A DNA stretch of 64,000 nucleotides. Origin: a virus. The notes beneath the pieces are model-generated. The model was given only the letters and a program-made list of their open reading frames with translations. It was not told the DNA's origin and ran no database searches. Location of the stretch: positions 3,868-67,867 of IMG/VR virus record IMGVR_UViG_3300045988_142996; one strand, 5' to 3'. The translations under genes and the position numbers were made by a program. Positions 35,517 through 61,603 of this stretch are shown one piece after another. Each line of letters begins with the position of its first letter. Positions within the stretch are counted from its first letter, which is position 1.

Positions 35517-35545
35517 CTTCATAAAAGAGCATGTATTTTACGCGT
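35517..35545 (-). promoter_or_regulatory. Copy 1 (variant) of the conserved 29-nt motif
   Basis: Minus strand reads ACGCGTAAAATACATGCTCTTTTATGAAG. 21 nt from the A of ACGCG to TTATG. Upstream of 35147..35464. Confidence 0.5.
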
Positions 35546-35588
35546 TTGTTTTTGTCGGTAGATGTCGGTTTTTGTCGGAAAACTTGCA

Positions 35589-35617
35589 AAAGAAAAAGAC
35601 GCAGATTGCTCTGCGTC
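35589..35617 (-). terminator. Rho-independent terminator (minus strand)
   Basis: Minus strand reads GACGCAGAGCAATCTGCGTC followed by TTTTTCTTTT, downstream of 35641..36003. Confidence 0.7.
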
Positions 35618-35640
35618 TTCGTCGTGTTTATTTGAGAATA

Positions 35641-36003
35641 TCAATCCTCATGGGTATGTTCTGCATAGAAATAGTACCAATCCGGAACACCAGCCAGAAG
35701 CCGTCTTCCATCATCGTACTCAAACTTACCGTAGTCTTCGTTCAGTTCAAGGTTAGCGGACTCGTATTCATCAAGCTCGATGACCTGATCGATTTCGTCC
35801 TCCGTTTTCGTGATGTTGCAGGGCGGACAAGCCCAATATCCGGGAACTTCTTCTATCATGTTTCGTCCGCAGGTGCACACCGGAACCTTTGTGTGAATCT
35901 CGCGGTACCGGTTCGCATAACAGTGGACAACATTCCCTGCTGCATCAGTGGTGGTCCATTCTTCAAAGCCATTGTCATTGATAAAGCGGTCCATGTAAGC
36001 CAT
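35641..36003 (-). CDS. Cys-rich hypothetical protein (putative zinc-binding)
   Basis: 120 aa. ...VPVCTCGRNMIEEVPGYWACPPCN... followed by an acidic C-terminal half. Confidence 0.6.
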   Translation of the reverse strand: MAYMDRFINDNGFEEWTTTDAAGNVVHCYANRYREIHTKVPVCTCGRNMIEEVPGYWACPPCNITKTEDEIDQVIELDEYESANLELNEDYGKFEYDDGRRLLAGVPDWYYFYAEHTHED

Positions 36004-36051
36004 CTTTACTACCTCATAAGCATCTAATCGGTGTGTGCATCATTTAAATCA

Positions 36052-36080
36052 AGTATACAACGCTGGTTGGGTTCTTACAA
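36052..36080 (-). promoter_or_regulatory. Sigma-A-type promoter (minus strand)
   Basis: Minus strand reads TTGTAA (36080..36075), 17-nt spacer, TATACT (36057..36052), about 45 nt upstream of the ATG at 36003. Confidence 0.45.
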
Positions 36081-36135
36081 GATTTTCGCCTTGAACTTTT
36101 CGTTAATTTGGGTCGTTTTTCGTCTCTGCCCAAAA

Positions 36136-36433
36136 GCCCACTTTTATTTTCTACTTATATATATTTTTTTCATTTTTAATAAATAAATAAGAAAAAAAGT
36201 GGGCAAGTGGGCAAAATGGCTTTTTCTTCCAAAAATATAACGTATTTACGCAATATTTTATCCAAAATTCGTGCCCACTTTTGGTTTTAAAAGTGGGCAG
36301 AAAGTGGGCTTTTGGCCAGAAATTGTGAATATTTTGTGAACAAACGGTCATTTTCGTCTATTCTAGAATAGAATTTCACGTCTCTGACACACAAAACCCA
36401 AAACAAAAGTGGGCACGAATTTCAAAAGTGGGC
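36136..36433. repeat. Cluster of eight AAGTGGGC repeats (six direct, two inverted) next to an AT-rich tract: iteron/operator array
   Basis: Copies at 36197, 36205, 36291, 36302, 36407 and 36426 (direct) and 36136 and 36273 (complement), mostly in the context AAAAGTGGGCA. AT-rich 36141..36196. No credible ORF. Confidence 0.85.
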
Positions 36434-36470
36434 AAAAGAAAAAGGCCCTGAATTTTACTCCAGAGCCTTT
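36434..36470 (-). terminator. Rho-independent terminator (minus strand)
   Basis: Minus strand reads AAAGGCTCTG-GAGTAAAATT-CAGGGCCTTT followed by TTCTTTT, downstream of 36476..36823. Confidence 0.65.
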
Positions 36471-36475
36471 ATTAT

Positions 36476-36823
36476 TTATTCGCCGCGCCATTCCATGATG
36501 ATATTGGATGGGTGACTATAATAGCCTTTATTTTTCCCTTCCGTTTGAAAGGTAATACTAGCATATCCCTTTGCTGGATAGTAGCGGTAGGAGTCGACAT
36601 AGCCCTCCATGATAAGGTTTCCCCCGGGAGTATAAAGCCAGGCATAATATGGAGATTGTTTTCCAGAATCGCAGAAGAACCCATTGTCCTCCAGCATTCC
36701 CCAGGATGTTATTGTTCCGTTTGTCGCTTCATCCAAAACGTCCACGGTTTCCGCATAACAAGGAACTGTCACGGAAAACATTAGGAGCGCTGCGATTACG
36801 GCCACCATAATATTCTTTTTCAT
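36476..36823 (-). CDS. Secreted protein (signal peptide)
   Basis: MKKNIMVAVIAALLMFSVTVPCYA-ETVD signal-peptide pattern. GGAGGG RBS before the ATG at 36823. Confidence 0.7.
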   Translation of the reverse strand: MKKNIMVAVIAALLMFSVTVPCYAETVDVLDEATNGTITSWGMLEDNGFFCDSGKQSPYYAWLYTPGGNLIMEGYVDSYRYYPAKGYASITFQTEGKNKGYYSHPSNIIMEWRGE

Positions 36824-36891
36824 TAAACGTCCCTCCTTTTTGTCTAAAAATAACATAAATTCTAACTGCTGTCAATGCCAATTTTCATCAG

Positions 36892-37230
36892 TTATTTCTC
36901 CAAACCCATCAAATATTCCGCACTCCGATAGACAAAATATCGCGGTGCAGGCGGTCGAACAAGTGCTTTTCTCGTGACATCTTCCATGCCAGATTGCTTT
37001 GTCCGCCACCCAATCGAGATGCAATGCCGGATATTCCGCTCCATTCTTTCCGGATTTGCCGCGTATTTTTGCCCGAGTTGTTCGTAATAAATGTACATGT
37101 GCGCCGGCTGTTCATCCTCCAGCAAAGCATCCGTGACCATGTCGATCAGCTCACCAAGCGGATTAAATCCCATCAACCATGGTTCAATGCCGACGCTTTT
37201 CAGATAATCATAGGTTCGAGGTCGCATCAA
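36892..37230 (-). CDS. Spo0A C-terminal-domain-like DNA-binding protein
   Basis: ...YEQLGQKYAANPERMERNIRHCISIGWRT... parallels the Spo0A_C signature (...tt.s.VERAIRHAIEvAW...). There is no receiver domain. Confidence 0.6.
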   Translation of the reverse strand: MMRPRTYDYLKSVGIEPWLMGFNPLGELIDMVTDALLEDEQPAHMYIYYEQLGQKYAANPERMERNIRHCISIGWRTKQSGMEDVTRKALVRPPAPRYFVYRSAEYLMGLEK

Positions 37231-37239
37231 ATCACCACC

Positions 37240-37431
37240 TCACAGATGAATCACACAGGCCGTCAGAGCCGAGCAGCCAAGCATGACAATGATCCAGAAA
37301 ATATCTTTCGGATGCACAATGATATGTACTTCTCCATCGATTTTCCTGAGATGAGTGCCGATTTTAAATCCCATACTGAGTCCATGCCAGTAGAGACAGC
37401 ACATCAAAGCAAAGAGTAGAAATCTCATCAT
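37240..37431 (-). CDS. Small two-TM membrane protein
   Basis: 63 aa with hydrophobic N- and C-terminal segments. Confidence 0.55.
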   Translation of the reverse strand: MMRFLLFALMCCLYWHGLSMGFKIGTHLRKIDGEVHIIVHPKDIFWIIVMLGCSALTACVIHL

Positions 37432-38020: not shown

Positions 38021-38027
38021 TGTTACT

Positions 38028-38171
38028 TCACCTCAATATCAAATAAACCAGAAGCAAGAGCCATCCGATATATATGATGGTTCTCTGCTTTTCTTCGCTA
38101 ATGTTCTCAGCGAAAGACATTCCAATGGCAATGGCCTGCCAAATAATGCTTATAAGCAGCACAGTTCGCAT
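38028..38171 (-). CDS. Small two-TM peptide (47 aa, below the ORF-track cutoff)
   Basis: MRTVLLISIIWQAIAIGMSFAENISEEKQRTIIYIGWLLLLVYLILR. Its ATG overlaps the ThyX stop (TGATG) and it fills an otherwise empty 150-nt gap. Confidence 0.5.
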   Translation of the reverse strand: MRTVLLISIIWQAIAIGMSFAENISEEKQRTIIYIGWLLLLVYLILR

Positions 38172-38887
38172 CACTTCACTGCACTGCCTTTCCGTGTCTG
38201 TTCATCCTCGGGCCAGTACGTGTAAATATCATCGAAGACCACCGGGATCTTCTTCTGTACCTCTTTCAGCAGCGGGCACATAAGCTCCCGCATCTGAGGA
38301 TGGGCCGCCACAAGAGTACGCAGTTTGAAGATGTTGCGCCACTCACGGTAGTTGGCAGTCACCACAATCTCAGTTTTCAGGCACAGCGGCAGCACGCAGC
38401 GGGCCTGTTCGGGACGCATACCGAGTGCAATCATATCCTTATAAAGGATTTCCGCAGATTCGCAGGAATCAAGCCAAGTGCTGCCAGGCGTATATTCTGC
38501 GCTTTCACAGTTCTTGTCAGTGTCGGTCACATCAATATAAAACGGCCGAATAAAGCTCAGCTCCCCGCCAAACTTTTCCTTCGAGTAGTTGCAGTACCGG
38601 GTGCTCTCCTGTGCAAAGCTCGCAATGCGATGCCGCACCAGCTCATTCGCCACACCACGGTCGCACGTAAACAGCACGCTCAGCTGAGAATGCTCCAGCA
38701 TAGCCTCATGCCCCTGCTTCACCAGAAAGCCCACCAGCTTCTTTGCCGACTCACCGTCCGGCGTGATCTTGTCCTCGCTCTTGTAGCAGACCCGCGCCAC
38801 TCGCTCGATCTGCTGCAGCTCCTTGATGCCGCCCTCAGAAATATCAGTGAGGATTTCGTACTTAGGTTCAACGATTTTCATAATCAA
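38171..38887 (-). CDS. thyX: FAD-dependent thymidylate synthase ThyX
   Basis: RHRIASFAQESTRY matches the ThyX signature RHR-x7-S-x-RY. 238 aa. Confidence 0.9.
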   Translation of the reverse strand: MIMKIVEPKYEILTDISEGGIKELQQIERVARVCYKSEDKITPDGESAKKLVGFLVKQGHEAMLEHSQLSVLFTCDRGVANELVRHRIASFAQESTRYCNYSKEKFGGELSFIRPFYIDVTDTDKNCESAEYTPGSTWLDSCESAEILYKDMIALGMRPEQARCVLPLCLKTEIVVTANYREWRNIFKLRTLVAAHPQMRELMCPLLKEVQKKIPVVFDDIYTYWPEDEQTRKGSAVK

Positions 38888-40909: not shown

Positions 40910-40938
40910 CCTCATAAAGGAGACTGTTATTTTCGCGT
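40910..40938 (-). promoter_or_regulatory. Copy 2 of the conserved 29-nt motif
   Basis: Minus strand reads ACGCGAAAATAACAGTCTCCTTTATGAGG. It overlaps the last codons (TRK*) of 40927..41088. 32 nt upstream of the ATG at 40879. Confidence 0.55.
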
Positions 40939-41088
40939 TTTCTCCTCAAACTTCACGGGCTTTACCGTACCCTCCCGTGCATACTCCGTCAGGCACTCGT
41001 TGCAAGGCTCGTCCGTCTCCAGCACCTTGAAGTTCTTGCACTTCGGGCAGTAGGACGCATAATTTACTTCGCGCATCCAGTCATTCAT
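40927..41088 (-). CDS. Small zinc-ribbon protein (53 aa, below the ORF-track cutoff)
   Basis: MNDWMREVNYASYCPKCKNFKVLETDEPCNECLTEYAREGTVKPVKFEEKTRK. Its ATG overlaps the upstream TGA (ATGA). Confidence 0.55.
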   Translation of the reverse strand: MNDWMREVNYASYCPKCKNFKVLETDEPCNECLTEYAREGTVKPVKFEEKTRK

Positions 41089-41798
41089 TTTTTCGCCTCC
41101 TCAATCGCAAAATGTGCAGTCTTTTCACGGCAGCAAGGGCACATCGCGATTTTAACGTCGCTTTCATAAAGGTACGGTATATCATCCCATGCCTGCTTGT
41201 AAAACTTATGTACGTCGCCGCACTTCAGGCATCTGGTGCGTACAGCGAGCTTGTCCAACGACTCTTGCTTAACTTCTGTCGAAAACCTATAATCCTCCTC
41301 CGGTACCATAGAATATTCACGGCAGTTTGGACATTGAATTAAGGCTGTCGGGCATTCGCGCATCAGGTCGTCATATGCACGCTTAGGGTGTGTCTCCCGT
41401 GCGCCACAAATTTTGCAAATAAGCGTAACTTTAGGCTTCACATTTTTATCTTTCCGGGCCTCTTCCACCTTCACCGCAAACCTATCATCCAACTCCGGGT
41501 GAGTCTCCCGCTGGTTCAATGCCCAGAGCAGGTTCCAGCAGGCAGCGCGCAGGTGGTCCTCATCGTTCATACCGACCATGTACTTTGCCAGATGCCGAGA
41601 AGCACTGTCCAGAAGCGAATGCAGCGGGATACCCTTATCCACGTTGTGCTCGCCGTACTTCAGCGCACCTTCCTCGCAGTGCTTGCTGACCTCCATGATG
41701 CCATACCAAGGTAAGAGATCCATTCTGCCCTTCCCTGCATGCATATCACGCTTGGCACCGGTTTCAAATTCGGTGCGGTCTCCAGAATCCTTAATCAT
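41085..41798 (-). CDS. MazZ-like dATP/dGTP pyrophosphohydrolase N-domain (DUF5664) fused to multiple zinc ribbons
   Basis: KDSGDRTEFETGAKRDMHAGKGRMDLLP...GALKYGEHNVDKGIP...DSASRHLAKYMVG.NDEDHLRAACWNLLWAL matches the DUF5664 pattern. The C-terminal half has four CxxC pairs. Confidence 0.65.
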   Translation of the reverse strand: MIKDSGDRTEFETGAKRDMHAGKGRMDLLPWYGIMEVSKHCEEGALKYGEHNVDKGIPLHSLLDSASRHLAKYMVGMNDEDHLRAACWNLLWALNQRETHPELDDRFAVKVEEARKDKNVKPKVTLICKICGARETHPKRAYDDLMRECPTALIQCPNCREYSMVPEEDYRFSTEVKQESLDKLAVRTRCLKCGDVHKFYKQAWDDIPYLYESDVKIAMCPCCREKTAHFAIEEAKK

Positions 41799-44328: not shown

Positions 44329-44357
44329 TTTCATAAAAGACTATGATTTTTTCGCGT
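44329..44357 (-). promoter_or_regulatory. Copy 3 of the conserved 29-nt motif
   Basis: Minus strand reads ACGCGAAAAAATCATAGTCTTTTATGAAA. It overlaps the last codons (DAKKS*) of 44341..44505. Confidence 0.55.
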
Positions 44358-44832: not shown

Positions 44833-44911
44833 TGGTGGGTCAGGCAGGATTTGAACCCGCGATCAAGCAGTTATGAGCTGCCAGCTTTTAACCCGGCTAA
44901 GCTACTGACCC
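44833..44911 (-). tRNA. tRNA with a CAT anticodon (elongator Met or lysidine-type Ile2), CCA encoded
   Basis: Minus strand reads GGGTCAG-TAGCTTAGCCGGGTTAAAAGCT-GGCAG-CTCATAA-CTGCT-TGATC-GCGGG-TTCAAAT-CCTGC-CTGACCC-A-CCA. 7-bp acceptor stem, canonical T-loop, G1-C72, so not an initiator. Confidence 0.85.
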
Positions 44912-44948
44912 AAATAAAAAGAGAGCCTGCGCTACACCGCAAGCTCTC
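44912..44948 (-). terminator. Rho-independent terminator directly 5' of the tRNA
   Basis: Minus strand reads GAGAGCTTGCG-GTGTAG-CGCAGGCTCTC followed by TTTTTATTT, which runs straight into the tRNA 5' end. Confidence 0.6.
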
Positions 44949-45057
44949 TCGAAAATATAAAACCGAGCCGTCACCTCAGAGAACGCCATTTGCGACGTGG
45001 GCACTCACCGTCTGGAGCATTCAACCGAGGACCGACCCCGGCACTCGGAAATATCAA

Positions 45058-52153: not shown

Positions 52154-53077
52154 TCAGATCTTATTGACAATTGGGCCATCAACATTGAAATGCAGCACGA
52201 CCGAGCGGTCACCCTGCATCTTGTCCAGACCGAACTTCACACAGTTGGACAGTTCTTCATTGTTGGGATCATAGACCCAGCCAACGAGCTGACCGTTGGG
52301 CTTATAGATCTGCTGGCCATTGTTGTAGCGACCGATCATGCGGTAAACTTCGTTCAGGAAAAGATAACCGCGCATCCGAAGCTGGTTGTTTGCATGCGTC
52401 TCCACCATGCTCAGAAATGCTTTGTTCAGCTGCGCGTCCGGTTCCCAGGTATCGACCATCTCATCAAAAATCAGGTCGTACGGCGAGTGTTCGCCATCGG
52501 TTTCATCAATGTAGGACTTGACAACCTCCTCGGTGCCATCTTCGTTGATGACCTTAGACTCAACTTCAACTGCCTTAACGCCATGCTCGATCTCGTGCTG
52601 GACACGCTCACCAAAGCGCTCCGACACACGACCCTTGTACTCGTTGAATGCCTTGTCCAGCGTAACATAAGCTGCGGTCAGAGCAGCATTGCGCTTCTGC
52701 AGGATATGATTCGAGCCAACCATGCAGCCGAGAGACAGAGTACCCAGGATGACTGCCGGCGCATAGAGCTTTACCAGCTTCACGCCGGTCTGCACATAAA
52801 CCGTGGTCAGATCCTTCTTGGCGTCCTCTTCAGTGTACTCGGCACCTTCCTTGACCTCAACCTTGCCATCCTTCACATCGTGGATGGTTGCAACGCTGGA
52901 CTGGTGCGCAGACATAATATCATTGACCTTCAGAGTTGCCTTGCAGGCCATGACAGCGCTGGTCACAGCACCAACGGCACCGCAGACCATCAGAATCTCA
53001 GGGCTATGCTTGCCCAGCTTGAACTTTGCTTTTGCTGCAAAACGGCTTGCTTTGACCATAATATCGTTCATTTTCAT
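52154..53077 (-). CDS. Membrane-hairpin protein, paralogue 1 of 3 (DUF6353-like)
   Basis: KHSPEILMVCGAVGAVTSAVMACKAT...ILGTLSLGCMVGSNHILQKRNAALTAAYVTL is shared with 54186..54941 and 55540..56289. Confidence 0.7.
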   Translation of the reverse strand: MKMNDIMVKASRFAAKAKFKLGKHSPEILMVCGAVGAVTSAVMACKATLKVNDIMSAHQSSVATIHDVKDGKVEVKEGAEYTEEDAKKDLTTVYVQTGVKLVKLYAPAVILGTLSLGCMVGSNHILQKRNAALTAAYVTLDKAFNEYKGRVSERFGERVQHEIEHGVKAVEVESKVINEDGTEEVVKSYIDETDGEHSPYDLIFDEMVDTWEPDAQLNKAFLSMVETHANNQLRMRGYLFLNEVYRMIGRYNNGQQIYKPNGQLVGWVYDPNNEELSNCVKFGLDKMQGDRSVVLHFNVDGPIVNKI

Positions 53078-53719: not shown

Positions 53720-53759
53720 AAAAATAAAAAGGTAAGAGCCGCAGATTTCTCCACGGCTC
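53720..53759 (-). terminator. Rho-independent terminator, GAGCCG..CGGCTC hairpin family
   Basis: Minus strand reads GAGCCGTGGAGAAATCTGCGGCTC followed by TTACCTTTTTATTTTT. Confidence 0.65.
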
Positions 53760-53777
53760 TCGCCCGAACCATTCACA

Positions 53778-54155: not shown

Positions 54156-54184
54156 TTCCATAAAGCAGGGTGAATTTTTCGCGT
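54156..54184 (-). promoter_or_regulatory. Copy 4 of the conserved 29-nt motif
   Basis: Minus strand reads ACGCGAAAAATTCACCCTGCTTTATGGAA, 1 nt after the stop of 54186..54941 and 45 nt upstream of the ATG at 54110. Confidence 0.6.
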
Positions 54185-54185: not shown

Positions 54186-54941
54186 TCACACGCCAAAATA
54201 GTGCGGCATTTCAACGTAATTGACAACCAGGCAGGGCTGCCCTTCTTCGTCCAGGCGAGAAGCATAGCAGGTTTCGATGTAACCGCGATCAATGTCCCAG
54301 CCCATCGTATCGCCGAGCTTCATCTCATCGAGGCCGATCAGGTCATACCACTCATTCAGACTCATACGCATATCATCCCGCAGTTGACGGTTGAAGTCAT
54401 TGACCGCCTTGTCGATCTGGTTCTTCGTGGCAACAAAATATCTGCTGCTCAGCGAGTCAAAGCACTTGATCTGACCGGCAGCATTGTTCACAACCAGTGA
54501 CTTCGGCTCCGGCACCTTCTGCTGCTGTTCGATGGCCACCGACTGTCGAATCTCGCGCTCCTTATCCTCGCCAATGGTCTCCAGAACTTTATCGCGGTAG
54601 GAACGCATCGTGCTCTCGCTCAGAGTATAAGCTGCAGTCAAAGCAGCATTGCGACGTGCATTCACACCGCTGGCACCGATGATGCAGGCAGTCGATACGG
54701 CGAAGCTGACCACCGTCGGAATATAAACCGGCGCTGCCGTCTTGATGATCTCCTTTGCTTCCAGCTTTTCAACACCCAGTTCCTGCTTCTTATCCTCCAG
54801 CAGGATTATGGCTTTCGGCGTCGCCTTGATGGCAAAAATCACGGAGGATGCTGCCCCCGCGATGCCTAGGCCCACAAGAATCTCCGGGCTGTGCTGTTTT
54901 GCGCCCTTCCAGAGTGCGTTTGCAAATGCTTTGAGTTTCAT
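54186..54941 (-). CDS. Membrane-hairpin protein, paralogue 2 of 3 (DUF6353-like)
   Basis: KQHSPEILVGLGIAGAASSVIFAIKATPKA...STACIIGASGVNARRNAALTAAYTLS. ATG at 54941 after GGAGG. Confidence 0.7.
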   Translation of the reverse strand: MKLKAFANALWKGAKQHSPEILVGLGIAGAASSVIFAIKATPKAIILLEDKKQELGVEKLEAKEIIKTAAPVYIPTVVSFAVSTACIIGASGVNARRNAALTAAYTLSESTMRSYRDKVLETIGEDKEREIRQSVAIEQQQKVPEPKSLVVNNAAGQIKCFDSLSSRYFVATKNQIDKAVNDFNRQLRDDMRMSLNEWYDLIGLDEMKLGDTMGWDIDRGYIETCYASRLDEEGQPCLVVNYVEMPHYFGV

Positions 54942-54963
54942 TGTTGTTCTTACCTCCTGAAAA

Positions 54964-54999
54964 TATAAAAGAAAAGAGCCGCAGCTTTCGCCACGACTC
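54964..54999 (-). terminator. Rho-independent terminator (hairpin subfamily shared with 60198)
   Basis: Minus strand reads GAGTCGTGGCGAAAGCTGCGGCTC followed by TTTTCTTTTATATTTT. Confidence 0.6.
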
Positions 55000-55010
55000 T
55001 CGTCTTGCAC

Positions 55011-55282: not shown

Positions 55283-55311
55283 TTCCATAATGCAGAGAGA
55301 TTTTTTCGCGT
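55283..55311 (-). promoter_or_regulatory. Copy 5 of the conserved 29-nt motif
   Basis: Minus strand reads ACGCGAAAAAATCTCTCTGCATTATGGAA, directly after terminator 55317..55346. Confidence 0.6.
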
Positions 55312-55316: not shown

Positions 55317-55346
55317 CGAAAAGAAAGAGAGGCATCACTGCCCCTC
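55317..55346 (-). terminator. Rho-independent terminator overlapping the stop of 55335..55499
   Basis: Minus strand reads GAGGGGCA-GTGA-TGCCTCTC followed by TTTCTTTTC. Confidence 0.55.
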
Positions 55347-55511: not shown

Positions 55512-55540
55512 CTTCATAATGGCCCTGGTATTTTTCGCGT
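55512..55540 (-). promoter_or_regulatory. Copy 6 of the conserved 29-nt motif
   Basis: Minus strand reads ACGCGAAAAATACCAGGGCCATTATGAAG. The preceding TGA is the stop of 55540..56289, and the SD follows TTATG directly. Confidence 0.6.
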
Positions 55541-56289
55541 CAGAACGGCTGTCCCGGCTCATAATTTTCCCAATCCTTCACAGGATCGGCCCAAGGGCTG
55601 AAGTAATATACTGTCAGGCCATCGTCTGTTTTCTGTTCATCGCATTCCACATCCAGCCAGAAGTATTCCCATTCATCCACCATCTGGTCGATGCACCAGC
55701 CACGCGATTCCGGATCTGGCTGATAATCAAGACCCAGCAATTCGCACCATGCTTCAAGCGAAACACCACCGTCCAGAGCCAACTTCTTGTTCAACATATA
55801 GGCAGCTTCATAAACTTGAGCCATCGTTGCATTGAAATATCTTTTCGTGTACGGCTCGTAAAAGAGCTTTATCGCATCGCCATTTTTGTCAAGAGGCATT
55901 TCTTCGACTTTTCGATGAATATCATGCTCCATCTCTTCGCCGACCTGCTCTGCTACCTTTTTGCGATAGGCACTGTAGGTCTGCTGAACCGCAATGTATG
56001 CCGCCATGAGCTCTTTCTGGGTCTTTTTGTTCAGGCAGTTCGAGCCCATAATGCAGGCAATCGTGCCAACGCCCACGACAGCGGCCAGAATATAATAACG
56101 CCAGCATGTCTCGACCGTTTCCTTCCTGGTCATGGGTTCATTTTGGTTCAGGTCGATCAGGCTTTGTGCCTTCGTAGTAGCTTTTGCCGTCTCAACAGCC
56201 GTCACCACCACGCCTGCAGCAGCGACCACAGACAGGATCGTTGCGCCGTGCTTGCTGATGTACGAGACAATCTTTTTGCTCAGTTTCAT
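55540..56289 (-). CDS. Membrane-hairpin protein, paralogue 3 of 3 (DUF6353-like)
   Basis: SKHGATILSVVAAAGVVVTAVETAKATTKA...GTIACIMGSNCLNKKTQKELMAAYIAVQ. ATG at 56289. Confidence 0.7.
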   Translation of the reverse strand: MKLSKKIVSYISKHGATILSVVAAAGVVVTAVETAKATTKAQSLIDLNQNEPMTRKETVETCWRYYILAAVVGVGTIACIMGSNCLNKKTQKELMAAYIAVQQTYSAYRKKVAEQVGEEMEHDIHRKVEEMPLDKNGDAIKLFYEPYTKRYFNATMAQVYEAAYMLNKKLALDGGVSLEAWCELLGLDYQPDPESRGWCIDQMVDEWEYFWLDVECDEQKTDDGLTVYYFSPWADPVKDWENYEPGQPF

Positions 56290-56305
56290 TGTTGTTCTCC
56301 TTTTA

Positions 56306-56656
56306 TCAATGATGGGTTCTCCAACGGTTTCGGTTTGATGCATTCACAATGCCTCTCGGATATCCAACCATAAGACAGGCCGGCACAGCGTCATTGCGCA
56401 GAAATATCCGTCCCGCCCTCTCATGAACTCCGAGGGCGAGCTTGTTGGCATCAATAAAATCCCGGATGCCTGCAACGATCGCGCGGCTGTTGGGCCGATC
56501 CTGTTCATTCAGTACAACTTCCATAATGAACGCTCCACTGTAAACAAATTCGCTGACAATGCTGCGAACATCCACCTTGTCAACTTTTTGCTTTGGCTCA
56601 TAGGAAGCATTGTACATTGCCGTGAATTCTTCCGAGCTGATGCTTTTCAGTTCCAT
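56306..56656 (-). CDS. Hypothetical protein
   Basis: MELKSISSEEFTAMYNASYEPKQ.... AAAGGAG RBS before the ATG at 56656. Confidence 0.55.
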   Translation of the reverse strand: MELKSISSEEFTAMYNASYEPKQKVDKVDVRSIVSEFVYSGAFIMEVVLNEQDRPNSRAIVAGIRDFIDANKLALGVHERAGRIFLRNDAVPACLMVGYPRGIVNASNRNRWRTHH

Positions 56657-57162: not shown

Positions 57163-57191
57163 CTTCATAAAGCATCGTGATTTTTTCGCGT
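57163..57191 (-). promoter_or_regulatory. Copy 7 of the conserved 29-nt motif
   Basis: Minus strand reads ACGCGAAAAAATCACGATGCTTTATGAAG, directly after terminator 57197..57230. Confidence 0.6.
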
Positions 57192-57196
57192 TTGGT

Positions 57197-57230
57197 AAAA
57201 AGAAAAGAGCCTACGATTTCTCGTAAGCTC
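57197..57230 (-). terminator. Rho-independent terminator
   Basis: Minus strand reads GAGCTTACGAGAAATCGTAGGCTC followed by TTTTCTTTTT. Confidence 0.65.
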
Positions 57231-57279
57231 TTTGAGATAAGGCTAAATATCAATTCGTGTACCGGTTTCCGTTAAATCC

Positions 57280-57438: not shown

Positions 57439-57467
57439 TCCCATAAGACGAGGAGAATTTTTCGCGT
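57439..57467 (-). promoter_or_regulatory. Copy 8 of the conserved 29-nt motif
   Basis: Minus strand reads ACGCGAAAAATTCTCCTCGTCTTATGGGA, directly after terminator 57468..57502. Confidence 0.6.
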
Positions 57468-57502
57468 AAAAGAAAAAAGAGCCTGTGATTCCTCACAAGC
57501 TC
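57468..57502 (-). terminator. Rho-independent terminator
   Basis: Minus strand reads GAGCTTGTGAGGAATCACAGGCTC followed by TTTTTTCTTTT. Confidence 0.65.
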
Positions 57503-57511
57503 TCTCAAATA

Positions 57512-57850: not shown

Positions 57851-57939
57851 GTATTTCGCCTCCCTTTGTTTCATTATAGCATGACCGAAACAAAAGCAAA
57901 AGACCATGTTTCAGATCTTTTGCTCTTCCAGAGTTGAAA

Positions 57940-58389: not shown

Positions 58390-59565
58390 ATGGTCTGTGT
58401 CGGAATTGATGTTGCCAAAGATAAGCATGACTGTTGCATTCTCGATTCGGAAGGAACGACCCTTGTCGATTGCTTTACCATTCCCAACAACATGGATGGT
58501 TTCAAAAGTCTGCTACAAACAATCCAAGACTGTTCTCAAAAATCAGACAAAATAAAAGTAGGGCTTGAGGCTACCGGACATTATAGCTACAACATCCTTG
58601 GGTTTCTTCTTGACAATGATCTGCCCGTCTATGTCATGAATCCCTTGCATACCAACCTGTATCGAAAGAGCCTCAGTCTTCGCAAAACTAAAACCGATCG
58701 TGTGGATGCAAAAACGATTGCAACTATGCTGTTGTCCGATGTAGACCTCAAGTCCTACACAGATACAGCATATCACAACGAAGAACTAAAGTCACTCACG
58801 AGATACCGATTTGATAAAGTTCAGGAACGCGCTAAACTAAAGCAGTCGGTGTCCAGATTGGTTACAATCCTGTTTCCGGAATTGGAACAGCTTGTTTCGT
58901 CTATCCACGGCACTTCAATCTACGCACTTCTCAGTGAGTATCCCGGTGCAAAGCAGATTTCAGAAGCTCATCTGACCAGATTAGCTAATATTCTCGTGAA
59001 AACATCCAGAGGCCATTACCGAAAAGATAAAGCTACTCATATCCGAGATGCAGCCAGAATATCCATTGGTTCTGTTATGCCTGCTAAGTCTTTGGAATTA
59101 AAGCACACCATTAAGCTCATTCAAGAACTTACCTCCGAAATCAATGAAATTGAAGATGCCATTCGGAAAATCATGGATGAATTGAAACCGCCGATCCTTT
59201 CGATTCCCGGAATGGGATTTCATTCTGCTGCGATGATTCTTGCAGAGGTAGGGGATTTTTCGAATTTTAACTCTCCTGACAAAGTTTTGGCTTATGCTGG
59301 ATGTTCTCCCTCCACATACCAGTCAGGAAAACTCACAAACTGCTATGCACACATGGAAAAGCGTGGCTCTCGTTATCTTCGATACGCTCTTTACACTGCA
59401 ACCAAATACGTCTGTTACTGGAATCCTGTTTTTACTGAATACCTTACCAAAAAGCAAGCTGAAGGCAAGCACTACAATGTTGCCCTATCTCATGCCACAA
59501 AGAAACTCGTACGACTGATTTACGCTTTGCAGAAGTCCGGTAAAGCATATCTTGCCGTCACTTGA
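58390..59565 (+). CDS. IS110-family (DEDD / RuvC-like) transposase
   Basis: MVCVGIDVAKDKHDCCILD... (DEDD_Tnp_IS110 N-terminus) and ...IPGMGFHSAAMILAEVGDFSNFNSPDKVLAYAGCSPSTYQSGK (Transposase_20 domain). Confidence 0.9.
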   Translation: MVCVGIDVAKDKHDCCILDSEGTTLVDCFTIPNNMDGFKSLLQTIQDCSQKSDKIKVGLEATGHYSYNILGFLLDNDLPVYVMNPLHTNLYRKSLSLRKTKTDRVDAKTIATMLLSDVDLKSYTDTAYHNEELKSLTRYRFDKVQERAKLKQSVSRLVTILFPELEQLVSSIHGTSIYALLSEYPGAKQISEAHLTRLANILVKTSRGHYRKDKATHIRDAARISIGSVMPAKSLELKHTIKLIQELTSEINEIEDAIRKIMDELKPPILSIPGMGFHSAAMILAEVGDFSNFNSPDKVLAYAGCSPSTYQSGKLTNCYAHMEKRGSRYLRYALYTATKYVCYWNPVFTEYLTKKQAEGKHYNVALSHATKKLVRLIYALQKSGKAYLAVT

Positions 59566-59617
59566 TTTTCTCCAGAGCCTGAGTTAAACCTAAGAACAAC
59601 TTAGCTGGCGCAGCGAA

Positions 59618-59742
59618 CCCTTGACAAACCGAAACATTCAAATGCTATTCTGTTTTTGCGAGGGTTGGCTGGGCTTGCTTTGCTGTTCTCTCCGTCACCC
59701 TCGCTACTCCAAGGCCAGCATTTGAATGATGTTTGTCAGGGG
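59618..59742 (+). ncRNA. Candidate IS110/IS1111-type guide (bridge/seek) RNA: nested long inverted repeats 3' of the transposase
   Basis: Outer arms cccttgacaaac..acattcaaatgct / agcatttgaatg..gtttgtcagggg. Inner stem gcgagggt (59658) / accctcgc (59697). Strand and extent are not established. Confidence 0.3.
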
Positions 59743-59797
59743 CAGCGGATGGTTGGCGGATTTTTTCATTTTAGGGCTTGACTTTTAATAGTTAGTC

Positions 59798-59826
59798 TTC
59801 CATAATAGAGCAAGGTATTTTCGCGT
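59798..59826 (-). promoter_or_regulatory. Copy 9 of the conserved 29-nt motif (now facing the IS element)
   Basis: Minus strand reads ACGCGAAAATACCTTGCTCTATTATGGAA. The preceding TAG is the stop of 59827..60189. Confidence 0.6.
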
Positions 59827-60189
59827 CTACACCTCTTTCCGATCAAACACCGTCTCCCACCTCTCTTTCTTCATCGGTTTCATCCTGATGGCCCACATCA
59901 GCTGCCGGACAGTCACCGTCGGATAAAATCCATTTTGATTTTTCTTTTTGGCGTGTTCGATAAAATACTCCCGGAATCCTTCGTGCATATAGATTTTGTC
60001 CGTCAGCCATGGGTCGATGGGGCCCCAGAAAGTCGCTCGGCTCTTCTCATTGAATCTTTGCTGGATGACACACAGGCCTTTCCCATGCTCTGCATACAGC
60101 GTACAAGTCTGGTACACCGGGTGATTGCATCGGTAGGTCACGCCGTAGTAATGCGTCCACTCTTCGGACGGCTCGGTATAATATCTCAT
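59827..60189 (-). CDS. Hypothetical protein (no SD; the ATG abuts the terminator T-run)
   Basis: 120-aa ORF (MRYYTEPSEEWTHYYGVTYRCNHPVYQTC...). The upstream sequence is ...GGCCTCTTTTTTTTATG. Confidence 0.55.
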   Translation of the reverse strand: MRYYTEPSEEWTHYYGVTYRCNHPVYQTCTLYAEHGKGLCVIQQRFNEKSRATFWGPIDPWLTDKIYMHEGFREYFIEHAKKKNQNGFYPTVTVRQLMWAIRMKPMKKERWETVFDRKEV

Positions 60190-60223
60190 AAAAAAAAGAG
60201 GCCGCAGCTTTCGCCACGACCTC
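60190..60223 (-). terminator. Terminator-like hairpin plus U-tract immediately 5' of a start codon
   Basis: Minus strand reads GAGGTCGTGGCGAAAGCTGCGGCCTC followed by TTTTTTTT, then the ATG of 59827..60189. Confidence 0.55.
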
Positions 60224-60235
60224 CACGGTTCCTCC

Positions 60236-60643
60236 TTACTTTGTCTTCGTCCAGGTTCCTCTCAGGATCTCACGGCCTTCTTTCCGTCTCTGACTCAGCG
60301 GCATAATACCACCAGCGTCATTCACGCCCTCGAACACATCGTTCCAGATATACAGCGCCATAGTTCCCACAACGCCTGCGATCGATGCGCCGACCTTCCA
60401 CCATTCAATCTTGCGAGCCTTCTCCGCATTCTCCACGTCCAATTCCACCTGCCGCTTCTTCAGCTGCAGCTCGTCCTCTTTCGCTTCCTTTGCTTCCCGG
60501 CTCTCACGATCCTTCAGACTGGTCTCCTGCATCTTCGCAATGCTGTTCACCGTTGCCGTATACTCCTCTGTGCCCGGCTTCATCGTTTTCAACGCATCAT
60601 ATGCCATCTCCAGAGCTTCATTTGCCATTTTTTCATTGTCCAT
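60236..60643 (-). CDS. Coiled-coil protein with a C-terminal TM segment
   Basis: Glu/Lys-rich helix followed by WWKVGASIAGVVGTMALYIW (TM). Confidence 0.6.
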   Translation of the reverse strand: MDNEKMANEALEMAYDALKTMKPGTEEYTATVNSIAKMQETSLKDRESREAKEAKEDELQLKKRQVELDVENAEKARKIEWWKVGASIAGVVGTMALYIWNDVFEGVNDAGGIMPLSQRRKEGREILRGTWTKTK

Positions 60644-60679
60644 TTTGATTTCTCCTTTGCAAAATAAATTCGGAGTTTC

Positions 60680-60708
60680 CTCCGTAAAGCAGCGAGTTAT
60701 TTTCGCGA
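60680..60708 (-). promoter_or_regulatory. Copy 10 (variant) of the conserved 29-nt motif
   Basis: Minus strand reads TCGCGAAAATAACTCGCTGCTTTACGGAG. It overlaps the last codons (SRK*) of 60697..60936. Confidence 0.5.
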
Positions 60709-60936
60709 TTTGACCTTCTGGACGCGGAGGATCACATAATCGTTCGTTTCCAAATTGTCCGGGGACTCGTCCAGATTCAGGAACAGGTGTGCACCATCGT
60801 CCTCTTCACCGGTATAGCCAACGATGATCGTCCCGACGGATTCTCGGCTCAGATCACGTCGGATGCCCAGTACAACACCAAGGCAGAACCCCAGCACCAC
60901 GGCAATTCCCGTAAGGATCCAGATCAGATAGCTCAT
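60697..60936 (-). CDS. N-terminally anchored small membrane protein
   Basis: MSYLIWILTGIAVVLGFCLGVVLGI is a TM segment followed by a short soluble domain. AAAGGAG RBS. Confidence 0.6.
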   Translation of the reverse strand: MSYLIWILTGIAVVLGFCLGVVLGIRRDLSRESVGTIIVGYTGEEDDGAHLFLNLDESPDNLETNDYVILRVQKVKSRK

Positions 60937-60989
60937 AAGACACAACTCCTTTTAAAAATATAAGTGAATGAATGGCTGACTGCGTGATG

Positions 60990-61020
60990 AAAAAATAAGA
61001 GCCGATGTTTCCATCAGCTC
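60990..61020 (-). terminator. Rho-independent terminator
   Basis: Minus strand reads GAGCTGATGGAAACATCGGCTC followed by TTATTTTTT. Confidence 0.65.
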
Positions 61021-61032
61021 CATTTTGAAATG

Positions 61033-61140
61033 TTATTTCTTTTTGTTTCTTTTGTGTTCTCCTTTCCGTTTCTCGATCAGGAGCTTTAAAACCTCCCATA
61101 AAATCAATAATACAAAAAGCTGCACTACAAAATTGTACAT
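61033..61140 (-). CDS. 35-aa TM peptide with a Lys-rich tail (below the ORF-track cutoff; listed ORF 60854..61216 is probably spurious)
   Basis: MYNFVVQLFVLLILWEVLKLLIEKRKGEHKRNKKK. AAGGTGG lies 9 nt before the ATG at 61140. It sits between a motif copy and a terminator. Confidence 0.45.
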   Translation of the reverse strand: MYNFVVQLFVLLILWEVLKLLIEKRKGEHKRNKKK

Positions 61141-61153
61141 CAGTCATACCACC

Positions 61154-61182
61154 TTTCATAAAGGTAGCTGAATTTTTCGCGT
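61154..61182 (-). promoter_or_regulatory. Copy 11 of the conserved 29-nt motif
   Basis: Minus strand reads ACGCGAAAAATTCAGCTACCTTTATGAAA, directly after terminator 61189..61221. Confidence 0.6.
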
Positions 61183-61188
61183 CAGCGC

Positions 61189-61221
61189 AAAAAGAAAGAG
61201 CCGCAGATTTCTCCACGGCTC
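61189..61221 (-). terminator. Rho-independent terminator, GAGCCG..CGGCTC hairpin family
   Basis: Minus strand reads GAGCCGTGGAGAAATCTGCGGCTC followed by TTTCTTTTT. The hairpin is identical to the one at 53736. Confidence 0.7.
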
Positions 61222-61228
61222 TTAGCCT

Positions 61229-61537
61229 TTAGTAAACGATATACTTCGTATACTGTTTCTTTTCCACTTGCTTGATTACACCTGCTTTCTTCAGCAGTTC
61301 AAAATCACGGATAATCCCGCCCATGTCAAACGCTTCAAATTCAACATTGAAGTCGCTGCGCTTCAGCTTTCCGTCCTCGTAGTCTCTGATTCGATAGATT
61401 CCCTGGCCAATCAGCCTCGGGTCCATCTTGCAGTTCCGACGAACGACTTCCATCATCAGCTCGCGCCCTTCAATGCCGTCATCTCTGACGCCCTTGACGA
61501 TAACGGTCATGTGATTCACTTTGTTGCTCTTAAACAT
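61229..61537 (-). CDS. Hypothetical protein
   Basis: 102-aa ORF with an AAAGGAG RBS, about 40 nt after motif copy 12. Confidence 0.6.
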   Translation of the reverse strand: MFKSNKVNHMTVIVKGVRDDGIEGRELMMEVVRRNCKMDPRLIGQGIYRIRDYEDGKLKRSDFNVEFEAFDMGGIIRDFELLKKAGVIKQVEKKQYTKYIVY

Positions 61538-61574
61538 ATTGTGTTCTCCTTTGCATTAAAACAGTGAATATTCG

Positions 61575-61603
61575 TTCCATAAAGGTATCTGAATTTTTCG
61601 CGT
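61575..61603 (-). promoter_or_regulatory. Copy 12 of the conserved 29-nt motif
   Basis: Minus strand reads ACGCGAAAAATTCAGATACCTTTATGGAA. The preceding TGA is the stop of 61603..62016. Confidence 0.6.

Follow-up and report, generated by a model that had tools for sequence, protein, structure and literature searches.

The early half of this phage genome carries repeated copies of a two-box element, which raises the questions of whether the element is a promoter and, if so, which RNA polymerase would read it. The window, that is, the whole stretch of 64,000 nt analyzed here, is a wrapped circular genome of 62,122 bp from a gut phage related to the Faecalibacterium phage FP_oengus.

Copies of the element in the window

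The original prediction listed twelve copies, and the minus strand carries 12 of 12 at those positions, whereas the dinucleotide-preserving shuffles that define the chance level give 0.03 on average and never more than 1. A search for ACGCGAAAAAT-N10-TTATGGAA with at most 3 mismatches recovers 10 sites, exclusively on the minus strand; the sites ending at 40938 (ACGCGAAAATAA..TTTATGAGG) and 60708 (TCGCGAAAATAA..TTTACGGAG) have 4-5 mismatches each. A 41-nt weight matrix scores 33-47 bits at the 12 sites and finds no further site of at least 10 bits on either strand of the window, a gap that is partly circular because the matrix was trained on the same sites. Thus, the structural (late) half is devoid of the motif, and the predicted restriction to the early half and the sense orientation is borne out, as it is in hundreds of relatives. 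The proposed both-strand scan with shuffled controls likewise brought up no antisense or extra copies in the window. The distance from the A of ACGCG to TTATG is exactly 21 nt in all 12 copies, as had been claimed. The N10 spacer, previously described as not conserved, does show conservation: motif position 13 is an invariant C, the next base is mostly A, and the last bases of the spacer are pyrimidine-rich, so that the fuller form reads ACGCGAAAAwwwCA-N3-tcyTTTATGRA.

The copies, all on the minus strand, are tightly packed among genes and terminators. The first bases of copy 1 (61575..61603) overlap the stop codon of a gene for a 137-aa protein. Copy 2 (61154..61182) lies 13 nt past an intrinsic-terminator hairpin (61196..61223, minus strand), copy 3 (60680..60708) is degenerate (TCGCG...TTTACGGAG), and copy 4 (59798..59826) has a plus-strand transposase insertion just downstream. 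Similar hairpins at 57475-57506, 57204-57233, 55327-55346, and 35595-35620 precede copy 5 (57439..57467) by 7 nt, copy 6 (57163..57191) by 12 nt, copy 8 (55283..55311) by 15 nt, and copy 12 (35517..35545) by 49 nt, so that 5 of the 12 copies are preceded by a strong intrinsic terminator at 7-49 nt. The first base of copy 7 (55512..55540) is part of a stop codon, copy 9 (54156..54184) matches perfectly, and the upstream genes end inside copies 10 (44329..44357) and 11 (40910..40938); stop codons within or abutting the motif, as originally noted, are present at 61603, 59826, 55540, 44357, and 40938. Ribosome-binding sites directly behind the TTATG box were also correctly predicted, being found immediately 3' of TTATGAAA at copy 2 and of TTATGAAG at copy 7. 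Copy 12 belongs to a distinct, conserved subclass (..ACATnCyCTTTTATGAAGAGrAGAG) and, judged from its position, is a candidate promoter of an operon that comprises endonuclease and Cas4/RecB-type exonuclease genes (34648..35506, minus strand) and the gene of a 920-aa single-chain RNA polymerase candidate (31884..34646, minus strand; GADFDGD).

The same element in related phages

Among 240 related loci there are more than 1,100 sense copies in early regions versus 2 in antisense. In relatives, the 616 kb upstream of the polymerase gene contain 167 copies, whereas the gene itself, the 638 kb downstream of it, and the antisense strand have none; downstream of the 137-aa gene, 810 sense copies stand against 0 antisense copies. 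Prophages of diverse Clostridia have 141 copies upstream, 26 downstream, and 2 in antisense. The same element is found in the same register in phages of Arthrobacter, Gordonia, Streptomyces, Lactococcus, and many Clostridia, with CGC(G/A) at positions 1-4, an A/T tract, C12 A13, C18, a TATAAT or TTTAT box ending at 24, and G at 25; the CGC box is missing in Lactococcus phage P092. On the basis of these comparisons, the putative promoter family spans a siphovirus supercluster that includes actinophage clusters (Arthrobacter, Gordonia, Streptomyces, and related ones) as well as Oengus-like phages of Clostridia and 1706/P092-like phages of Lactococcus.

Within each lineage all copies are alike, sharing TATAAT, TTTATG, or TATAGT in one box and CGCG, CGCA, or nothing in the other. 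The Oengus group has aCGCGAAAAattCa...tcctTTATGga, MT835485 has tCGCGaaAaatACAt..ccttTtATgaAA, Mudcat has tCGCGtAAAtTACA.GGGCTATAATg, Kenosha has TCGCA...ATTACACG.CcTATAATGAGA, Scap1 has CTCGCAAgTTtTaCAtgC.tTATAGTGAGA, the oral phage D_HF4_2 has cgCAaaaat.AC..gtcCTATAATGAGA, and P092 has TTTTACATACCCTATAATGA. Such concerted change suggests coevolution with a phage-encoded reader. Furthermore, a copy precedes the polymerase operon in every lineage examined. Of 69 distant Clostridial prophages, 67 have it at a distance of 880-1500 nt upstream of where the polymerase gene starts, and most of these copies form one near-invariant subclass, cGCGAAAAAAACATnCCCTTTTATGAAGAGAGAGG.

Putative promoter context and start site

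Several lines of evidence suggest that the element acts in initiation of transcription. In relatives, a strong intrinsic terminator is found upstream of 245 of 556 unique motif sites, and D_HF4_2 likewise has terminator-motif modules. In these relatives, start codons lie 11-26 or 31-50 nt after the first T of TTATG, which corrects the 10-45 nt originally given. At 117 of 513 unique sites the core of a ribosome-binding site begins no later than index 31, ahead of an open reading frame of at least 30 codons, and 49 of these 117 also have a terminator just upstream. In addition, a tRNA-like gene (Rfam, 47.9 bits) starts 0-2 nt after G25 in 44 of 44 carrier loci. Because ribosome-binding sites and the tRNA-like gene abut TTATG, RNA would begin about 1-2 nt after TAT, and we infer that the start site is G25 or the next purine. 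The original prediction had placed the start at or just before TTATG; the box was right, but the start appears to lie just after TAT rather than before it. Such a start does not fit the geometry of sigma-70 promoters, in which a -10 box would place it about 7 nt further downstream.

This geometry bears on the simplest alternative, namely that the host sigma-A holoenzyme alone uses the motif as a conventional strong early promoter, with a -10 box but no -35 box and an upstream part that is spacer or UP-like. The 3' box is indeed TATAAT in the actinophage and Lactococcus lineages, and Actinobacterial promoters often lack a -35 box. In the window and 546 related sites, however, the box reads yTTTAT, and its key second base (equivalent to -11) is A in only 17% of Oengus-group sites; no TTGACA-like hexamer is present 16-18 bp upstream of the 3' box. 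Host sigma-A also leaves unexplained why CGCG, the A-tract, and CA are kept across host phyla while the motif changes in concert within lineages. We regard recognition by sigma-A alone as extremely improbable.

It is also conceivable that the motif is no promoter but an RNA-level element (a processing, stability, or translation signal in read-through RNA) or the operator of a regulator. It is strand-specific and sits in 5' leaders, and the tRNA-like gene has its mature 5' end at the border of the motif, resembling an RNase site. Yet many copies directly follow strong terminators, so that little read-through RNA would include them; the spacer and downstream bases have no covarying structure, and the motif has no Rfam family match. 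The start-associated sequences of Cluster K mycobacteriophages are also multi-copy, sense-strand, and intergenic, and lie upstream of many genes; they include the ribosome-binding site and keep a fixed distance to the start codon, whereas the distance here is variable and bimodal and the motif often follows a terminator. Finally, in contrast to lysogeny operators, the motif is non-palindromic and is present in phages that are strictly lytic, and its two boxes, one of the TATAAT type, have the layout of a DNA promoter. An RNA-level element or operator thus seems very unlikely, and we are highly confident that the motif represents a promoter family. The earlier reading as a phage-specific, non-sigma-A promoter is supported by the strand and region restriction in hundreds of relatives, the terminator-motif-gene modules, the abutting ribosome-binding sites and tRNA-like gene, and conservation together with the polymerase across host phyla.

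Candidate readers

Two readers had been named, the polymerase and the 137-aa protein (61603..62016, minus strand, all-helical). We favor, with some reserve, the hypothesis that the motif is read by the phage's own 920-aa DFDGD polymerase and not by a sigma-70-type holoenzyme; if so, it is a so far undescribed promoter, and the searchable literature yielded no description of it. Co-distribution is one argument: full-length homologs with 36-45% identity are encoded by all motif phages compared, each with both helix-turn-helix domains of the 920-aa protein, in which a sigma-region-4-like one lies at aa 109-133 and an ECF-sigma-region-4-like one at aa 867-920. Across the supercluster, the conserved set comprises structural and replication proteins, a helix-turn-helix/DxDGD protein, and one small hypothetical protein (bioRxiv 10.1101/842583). 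As annotated, the polymerase is the only conserved protein with DNA-binding domains that could serve as specificity factor. Its N-terminal recognition helix reads ES(S/T)(V/I)R in CGC-box lineages, SSTVR in D_HF4_2 with its degenerate box, and PGSVT in the box-less P092, a pattern that weakly hints at covariation of helix and CGC box. The AlphaFold2 model of this predicted polymerase has a pLDDT of 54.

As the main alternative, the host multisubunit polymerase could be redirected by a phage specificity factor, with the 137-aa protein (in Oengus-like phages, and analogues elsewhere) serving either as a sigma-like factor or as an activator in place of -35 recognition; the phage polymerase would then be made from copy 12 and transcribe late genes, as YonO does in SPbeta. 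This would give a simple cascade. A sigma-A-like promoter (TTGTCA-16-TAAATA, 62387-62360) precedes an 82-aa gene (62013..62261, minus strand), the first in the rightward operon, and this gene and the 137-aa gene are the only ones upstream of copy 1 and thus of every copy. In the window as well as in FP_oengus and MT835485, the 137-aa stop codon overlaps copy 1, and this placement directly before the first copy counts against reading by the polymerase. The fold model of the 137-aa protein (pLDDT 86) has weak BFVD matches to phage proteins of 130-165 aa named "transcriptional activator," "sigma-70 region 4," and "ECF sigma." Hairpin/T-run terminators fill the early region and bound its units, as is typical of bacterial polymerase; YonO-type enzymes lack a flap domain, and the TATAAT box of most lineages would be usable by host sigma-A.

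Nevertheless, Mudcat and P092 retain the motif in unchanged register although a profile search of their complete genomes, run with every filter disabled, brings up no homolog of the 137-aa protein. When 50,697 phage records were searched by tblastn, the protein turned up in two FP_oengus records and two gut scaffolds and nowhere else; the 137-aa protein thus appears dispensable for the motif. The protein is 50-79% identical among relatives while the motif is unchanged. Searches of Pfam, NCBIfam, and the PDB (by sequence and by fold) gave it no sigma match, so it is not detectably a sigma factor, and its earlier description as sigma-like is backed only by the weak BFVD matches. The start geometry and the rarity of A at the -11 equivalent in the Oengus lineage also fit a sigma-70-family factor poorly. 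We therefore consider host polymerase plus a phage factor rather unlikely.

Reading by the phage polymerase has its own difficulties. The polymerase gene is downstream of every motif copy, in its own operon behind a terminator and copy 12; were it the sole reader, its first molecules would have to be brought in with the virion or made through read-through or weak recognition by the host. This bootstrapping counts against it, as do the TATAAT box, the bacterial-type terminators, and the analogy with YonO, which transcribes the late operon of SPbeta from a single promoter upstream of yonK, with sequence requirements still undefined (PMC5467207). By that analogy the 920-aa enzyme would be late too. 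The two, likened by description, are single-chain enzymes of about 100 kDa of the two-barrel class from temperate siphoviruses of Firmicutes, and only in this loose sense does the original label "YonO-like" hold. Unlike the single late promoter of YonO, the motif here has 12 copies in the early half, and the helix-turn-helix domains of the 920-aa enzyme are absent from the published description of YonO (PMC5467207).

A precedent for reading by the polymerase is gp64 of Thermus phage P23-45, a nonvirion two-barrel polymerase, like the single-subunit QDE-1 and gp66, responsible for transcription of early genes and some of the middle ones; a GC-rich motif present in multiple copies upstream of start sites is its proposed promoter and matches its ChIP-seq distribution (PMC10770324). 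That motif differs from the one here and is less conserved, and the enzymes are likened by description. P23-45 starts up with a virion polymerase fused to the tape measure protein, to which we see nothing comparable here, but its relatives without a virion polymerase share the start-up question (PMC10770324). The nonvirion multisubunit polymerases of AR9/phiKZ, also noncanonical two-barrel enzymes working without a sigma factor, use late promoters with an ACA box from A-11, six bases, U, and A/G at +1 (PMC5449584). Both there and here a short ACA box stands at a fixed distance before a T-purine start, but the A of ACA is at -12 here versus -8 in AR9, whose five-subunit enzyme reads the template strand, needs uracil, and has a dedicated promoter-recognition subunit. 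The promoters of T7, T3, and SP6 resemble the motif in being multi-copy, coding-strand-only, phage-specific consensus sequences of 20-30 bp with a T/A-rich box immediately before the initiating G, purines after it, distinct subclasses, and a consensus that drifts in step among relatives. In contrast to T7, the polymerase here is unrelated, with the DFDGD motif of the two-barrel class, recognition would be through fused helix-turn-helix domains, the motif has two boxes with a partly free spacer, and all copies are in the early region upstream of the polymerase gene, whereas nearly all T7 promoters follow gene 1.

We propose that the motif serves as promoter of the phage's early transcription units. 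The polymerase would be anchored by its fused helix-turn-helix domains to the upstream box, as double-stranded DNA; this box consists of CGCG and the A-tract (about -24 to -12) and contains the invariant C (-13) and A (-12). Melting would occur at -6 to -1 in the T/A-rich box, which is TTTAT in the window and TATAAT in most relatives, such that RNA begins directly after TAT with the conserved G or the next purine. An intrinsic terminator would close each unit just before the next promoter, and the specially conserved variant would drive the endonuclease-exonuclease-polymerase operon, creating positive feedback. A conserved 89-aa protein (31593..31862, minus strand), whose gene the polymerase gene always precedes, is a possible cofactor. 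Beyond it, a conserved cos region (31488..31577, minus strand; a hairpin and AAATCGCGCCGGTCT|TTAATATTTCCCCGGGGG) forms the border at which the early/polymerase arm ends and the late arm starts.

The motif in the window and across lineages

A pattern search allowing up to three mismatches recovered 10 of the 12 sites, all on the minus strand, and the remaining two were found in a degenerate form; the shuffle-controlled scan that the original prediction had called for sets 12 observed copies against 0.03 sites expected. Scored with a 41-nt weight matrix, the 12 sites reach 33–47 bits and any other site on either strand stays below 10 bits, a gap that is partly circular because the matrix was made from the same 12 sites. 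The exact spacing that had been claimed was borne out in every copy. From copy 1 (61575–61603) to copy 12 (35517–35545), all copies lie between the gene for a 137-aa protein (61603–62016) and the operon whose last gene encodes a 920-aa protein (31884–34646, minus strand), and a simple gene map places them at gene junctions, several overlapping or abutting stop codons, as originally described. The 10-nt spacer, by contrast, had been described as unconserved and is not: the C at position 13 of the motif, counted from the A of ACGCG, is invariant and usually followed by A, and the 3′ end of the spacer is pyrimidine-rich. In the indices used below, the C of CGCG is position 1 and TTATG occupies positions 21–25.

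Window bases 1–1878 are identical to 62123–64000, which indicates a circularly wrapped genome of 62,122 bp, and features at the window ends therefore appear twice. A relative is Faecalibacterium phage FP_oengus, with ~79% identity over 29% of the 24-kb early region searched (window 40000–64000) and the same gene order; its ~15 motif copies are all on the coding strand and all in the early half. Among 80 viral contigs found via the 920-aa polymerase candidate (74–99% identical), we counted 167 sense copies in 616 kb upstream of the polymerase gene and none in 638 kb downstream, within the gene or in antisense. A further 80 contigs found via the 137-aa protein (50–79% identical) carry 810 sense copies, about ten per 10 kb, and no antisense copies, with a consensus unchanged across identity classes. 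In 80 prophage loci of bacterial genomes (polymerase 48–81% identical) there are 141 copies upstream, 26 downstream and two in antisense, and the hosts include Faecalibacterium, Oscillospiraceae, Lachnospiraceae, Ruminococcus, Hungatella, Enterocloster and Blautia. Equal density on the antisense strand, originally named as an outcome that would speak against a promoter, is thus seen neither in these three sets nor in the window, where antisense sites score below 10 bits. Scanning viral contigs with a loose 14-base pattern gave single chance matches only, among the matches listed. Six of the relatives' loci (L295, L296, L299, L301, L319 and L358) come from bins labelled Oxalobacter, Bacteroides or Parabacteroides that hold contigs of this Clostridial phage group, some with a polymerase 75–80% identical to that of the window; these labels probably reflect binning error rather than true host range.

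Every genome examined carries the motif in multiple copies, on the sense strand only, in the early region only and in the same register as the window. This register is common to seven lineages with hosts from Actinomycetota and Bacillota, and a polymerase homologue is demonstrable in six of the seven, the seventh, MT835485, being a partial scaffold that lacks the polymerase region. The consensus is aCGCGAAAAattCa...tcctTTATGga in the Oengus group (FP_oengus-like phages of Clostridia), tCGCGaaAaatACAt..ccttTtATgaAA in MT835485, tCGCGtAAAtTACA.GGGCTATAATg in Mudcat, TCGCA...ATTACACG.CcTATAATGAGACCC in Kenosha, CTCGCAAgTTtTaCAtgC.tTATAGTGAGACCCCTAC in Scap1, cgCAaaaat.AC..gtcCTATAATGAGAAc in D_HF4_2 and TTTTACATACCCTATAATGAaA in P092. 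The variant specific to a lineage is present in all copies of that lineage, and such uniformity is a signature of coevolution with a phage-encoded reader. We considered MT835485 as a natural experiment, since the 137-aa gene and over 20 copies of the motif occur there without a polymerase, and rejected it: this partial genome also lacks the exonuclease and all structural genes; MT835495 is a fragment complementary to it.

Proposed transcription units and start site

We regard the motif as very probably a promoter. Strong intrinsic terminators, with 8–14 bp stems, mostly GAAA tetraloops and T-runs, lie 7–49 nt upstream of 5 of the 12 copies, and a terminator-like element precedes 245 of 556 unique sites in relatives; no strong terminator was found in the late half. 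A ribosome-binding-site core at index ≤31 plus an ORF of at least 30 codons accompanies 117 of 513 unique sites, 49 of which also have a terminator just upstream. A terminator before the motif and a ribosome-binding site and gene after it constitute the layout of independent transcription units. The fixed start-codon distance of a start-associated sequence was not found; in relatives start codons fall at index 32–47 or 52–71, and some are farther away. The terminators of the early region form a repeat family (e.g., GAGAGCCGTGGAGAAATCTGCGGCTCTT), with members on the minus strand at 61196–61223, 60197–60224, 54974–55001, 53734–53761, 57204–57233 and 57475–57506, and D_HF4_2 has a terminator family of its own, ACCTATAACCC..GGGTTATAGGCTTTT. 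Terminators and promoters seem to have spread as modules.

The position of the start is narrowed by a tRNA-like gene in FP_oengus (L001, 2936–3005) that begins at index 27 of a motif copy. Rfam scores this gene as a tRNA at 47.9 bits; its anticodon loop is shortened, and ARAGORN reports "tRNA-???" with a 2-nt anticodon. The 5′ end of the gene lies 0–2 nt past G25 in each of the 44 related loci (among L210–L264) where it occurs; these loci are orthologous and represent one event, in which the register is held while the spacer diverges. No gene of this type is present in the window. Because ribosome-binding sites and the tRNA-like gene abut TAT-G, the RNA would have to begin at G25 or the next purine, and we infer from this arrangement a start at G25 or R26, just past TAT. 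The original prediction had placed the start at or just before TTATG; the arrangement agrees with its proximity to TTATG and not with a start before it. A tRNA-like stretch that follows a motif in P092 received no confirmation from ARAGORN and is not counted as evidence. Elsewhere in the window, a tRNA-Met gene (44833–44911, minus strand) directly follows a strong terminator hairpin at 44919–44950 and has no motif copy; the orthologous tRNA-Met gene of FP_oengus has a degenerate copy (18 bits) 35 nt upstream.

This proposed geometry differs from that of a sigma-70 promoter. The −10 pattern, TAnnnT with a second-position A and 5–9 nt before the start, is not seen: the box reads yTTTAT, an A at its second position (the equivalent of the critical −11 A) occurs in 17% of 546 sites, and the proposed start falls 1–2 nt past the box. 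If the T/A box served a sigma-70-type holoenzyme as −10 element, the start would lie ~7 bases further downstream. No TTGACA-like −35 was found 16–18 bp upstream of the −10 box, where the bases are unconserved. Of the 12 copies, only those at 59826 and 61182 come up in a sigma consensus scan, both marginally at 9 of 12 matches, and promoter-like matches in the region are not enriched over shuffles (28 vs. 23.3 and 25 vs. 19.8). The motif is thus a poor sigma-A promoter, in agreement with the original assessment. T7-type promoters likewise have a T/A box at −6 to −1 and G as +1, and the proposed geometry resembles theirs.

An action at the RNA level was also considered. A hairpin masking the ribosome-binding site, suggested by frequent apparent complementarity between the spacer and the sequence past TTATG (CTCC TTTAT GGAG), was rejected, since the 546 sites show isolated weak excess pairing and no helix. 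No covarying hairpin was found within or across the motif, and the Rfam search of the window matched nothing except the tRNA-Met gene; a structured RNA element is thus not indicated.

Candidate readers of the motif

YonO-class single-chain two-barrel polymerases are regarded as similar to the enzyme from which all cellular RNA polymerases descend. Based on its DxDGD motif and family profile, the 920-aa protein is a candidate member of this class. In particular, it contains GADFDGD at residues 526–532, invariant across six lineages and matching the DxDGD metal-binding loop, and it has a full-length match to PHROG 4291, an RdRP/YonO-like profile annotated as "RNA-dependent RNA polymerase"; an HHpred match to PF05183 (95.7%) has been reported in the literature. 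Two helix-turn-helix domains are recognizable, one near the N-terminus that resembles sigma region 4 and one at the C-terminus that resembles ECF sigma region 4. The original designation as YonO-like finds its support in the catalytic loop and the family profile; Pfam models and a PDB profile search detect the helix-turn-helix domains only. The AlphaFold2 model has a pLDDT of 54, below 50 in the catalytic core, and was built on a shallow alignment (relatives ≥77% identical). The protein has more than 8,000 database relatives. Full-length homologues with both helix-turn-helix domains, 36–45% identical, occur in 251 phage records spanning Arthrobacter, Gordonia, Streptomyces, Microbacterium, Curtobacterium, Rhodococcus, Lactococcus and human-associated siphoviruses. 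In all genomes examined the gene order is endonuclease, Cas4/RecB exonuclease, polymerase, small conserved gene and genome end. Koert et al. described this supercluster and its "HTH protein with DxDGD" as part of a conserved core together with structural proteins, helicase, HNH endonuclease, RecB exonuclease and one hypothetical protein, and are silent on promoters (bioRxiv 10.1101/842583).

We favor, with some reservation, the view that the phage polymerase reads the motif. It is the only conserved protein with annotated DNA-binding domains, and in every lineage a motif copy precedes the endonuclease–exonuclease–polymerase operon. Of 69 distant Clostridial prophages, 67 have this copy 880–1500 nt upstream of the point where the polymerase gene starts. 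The majority of these copies belong to one near-invariant subclass, cGCGAAAAAAACATnCCCTTTTATGAAGAGAGAGG, which includes copy 12 of the window, and several of these lineages have a second copy of the cGCGAAAAAAACATnCCCTTTTATGAAGAGAGAGG subclass 1–4 kb downstream of the polymerase, where the late region begins. The N-terminal recognition helix reads ES(S/T)(V/I)R where the CGC box is present; a degenerate box goes with SSTVR, and P092, which has no box, has PGSVT. This covariation, essentially one phylogenetic contrast, hints weakly that the N-terminal helix-turn-helix may read the CGC box.

The serious rival is that host polymerase reads the motif with the help of a phage factor, which we judge improbable. 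The polymerase gene is the last of the motif-bearing arm, and a motif copy drives its own operon from behind an insulating terminator, so a start-up mechanism, of which we found no sign, is needed if the polymerase is the reader. Furthermore, SPβ YonO transcribes late genes from one promoter (PMC5467207), the 3′ box is a perfect host −10 hexamer in most lineages, and motif-driven units close with classical terminators. There is nevertheless a precedent for the polymerase as reader in P23-45 gp64, a phage two-barrel polymerase that transcribes early genes and for which a multi-copy motif has been proposed as its own promoter (PMC10770324). The 137-aa protein is a poor candidate for such a factor across the family: an unfiltered profile search found no homologue in the complete genomes of Mudcat or P092, both of which have the motif, and among 50,697 phage records the protein occurs in FP_oengus and two gut scaffolds only. 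It therefore cannot be the family-wide reader. No match of any kind, sigma regions 2 and 4 included, was found with Pfam (for the protein and 49 homologues), NCBIfam or PDB profiles. Its fold model (pLDDT 86) has no PDB match with an E-value below 2.8, and its BFVD matches, to small phage proteins that bear the names sigma-70 region 4, ECF sigma and transcriptional activator, are weak (E 0.02–1.7, TM 0.4–0.58); it is possibly a regulator. Of the two readers originally put forward, the polymerase is thus favored by its codistribution with the motif across lineages, and the 137-aa protein is not.

If the polymerase is the reader, a broader and more doubtful reading is that the 920-aa protein may be a self-sufficient machine that would recognize a bipartite ~30-bp dsDNA promoter through its fused terminal helix-turn-helix domains, start at the G after TATAAT/TTTAT and run most phage transcription without host sigma. 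Exceptions would be the integrase, the two leading rightward genes and those accessory genes that have host-type promoters. Were this true, the pair would be the first defined promoter for any YonO-class enzyme and a naturally host-independent, portable polymerase–promoter system, given that the same architecture works in Actinomycetota, Lactococcus and Clostridia. The sequence requirements of the SPβ YonO promoter are undefined (PMC5467207), and a well-defined, multi-copy, deeply conserved candidate with natural variants in at least seven lineages makes promoter recognition by this class directly testable. A pair functional in Clostridia, lactic acid bacteria and actinobacteria alike could provide orthogonal expression in hosts that are difficult to engineer. 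The motif also offers a means of annotating early transcription units in actinophage genomes, hundreds of which are deposited with the polymerase still labelled "helix-turn-helix DNA-binding protein". Oengus-like phages rank with the most prevalent phages of the human gut and were detected in up to 40% of virome samples (PMC5883640).

Promoters specific to phage polymerases are well known as a kind. The AR9 late promoter shares with the motif an ACA box set at a constant distance ahead of a T-purine start, but its spacing differs and its reader is a multisubunit two-barrel enzyme (PMC5449584). The full-text literature searched (on the motif and on promoters of YonO, phage 1706 and Arthrobacter/actinophage clusters) does not describe the present element. 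What is new is this particular element, its bipartite form, its cross-phylum conservation and its association with an uncharacterised polymerase to which helix-turn-helix domains are fused.

Genome arms, host-type promoters and other genes

A 90-nt conserved noncoding block after the small gene 3′ of the polymerase (31488–31577, minus strand) consists of a hairpin, GGGGAGGGGGT..ACCCCCTCCC, followed by AAATCGCGCCGGTCT|TTAATATTTCCCCGGGGGTAAAATTGATATTT, and is conserved from actinophages to Lactococcus phages. The block was considered as a late promoter and rejected: the physical ends of Mudcat, P092 and Scap1 fall within the homologous block, which identifies it as the cos region, with a predicted cut near 31528. 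This leaves the polymerase operon as the final one ahead of the genome end; only joining of the ends places the late genes after it. Beyond the block, TTTTGTAAGGGCTTATGAGATAG at about 31431–31398 (minus strand) and an inverted copy ~140 nt downstream, at 31288–31266, flank reverse-oriented short ORFs with ribosome-binding sites. All Oengus-like relatives have an equivalent, in which a hairpin is followed by TTTTTGCAAGGGCTyATGGGAG and then by the inverted copy, and Mudcat has one reverse gene at the equivalent place. The TTTTGTAAGGGCTTATGAGATAG pair could act as a regulatory switch or as two late promoters in convergent orientation.

The only rightward genes that lie upstream of motif copy 1 are those for the 82-aa and 137-aa proteins, and a sigma-A-like promoter, TTGTCA-16-TAAATA, is situated in front of them. 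At 36441–36875 (minus strand) there is a self-contained unit in which a good sigma-A-type promoter (TTGACA-17-TATTTT, preceded by TG) and a strong terminator enclose a 115-aa gene; the database matches of this gene are all nonsignificant and limited to the first ~35–70 residues. The unit has the appearance of an accessory gene that host polymerase expresses, unlike the motif-driven units that surround it.

Directly downstream of motif copy 4, the segment 58146–59801 carries a 391-aa transposase (PHROG 2199; ORF 58390–59565, plus strand). Its 85% DNA identity to a segment of the unrelated Faecalibacterium phage Roos indicates a mobile element moving between gut phages. A protein with a MazZ-like dATP/dGTP diphosphohydrolase N-terminal domain (PF18909) is encoded near a ThyX thymidylate synthase (41085–41798 and 38171–38887, minus strand). 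The nucleotide pool is likely manipulated to some degree; no PurZ was found among the ORFs scanned or in the FP_oengus annotation, which gives no indication of a 2-aminoadenine genome. A 1331-aa primase-polymerase-type replication protein (DUF5906; 46436–50431, minus strand) is conserved in the actinophage and Lactococcus relatives, and a 48-nt stretch of its gene has 92% DNA identity to Streptomyces phages. Finally, the early region contains three paralogous DUF6353 genes on the minus strand (52154–53077, 54186–55010 and 55540–56343), and three copies are likewise present in FP_oengus and MT835485.
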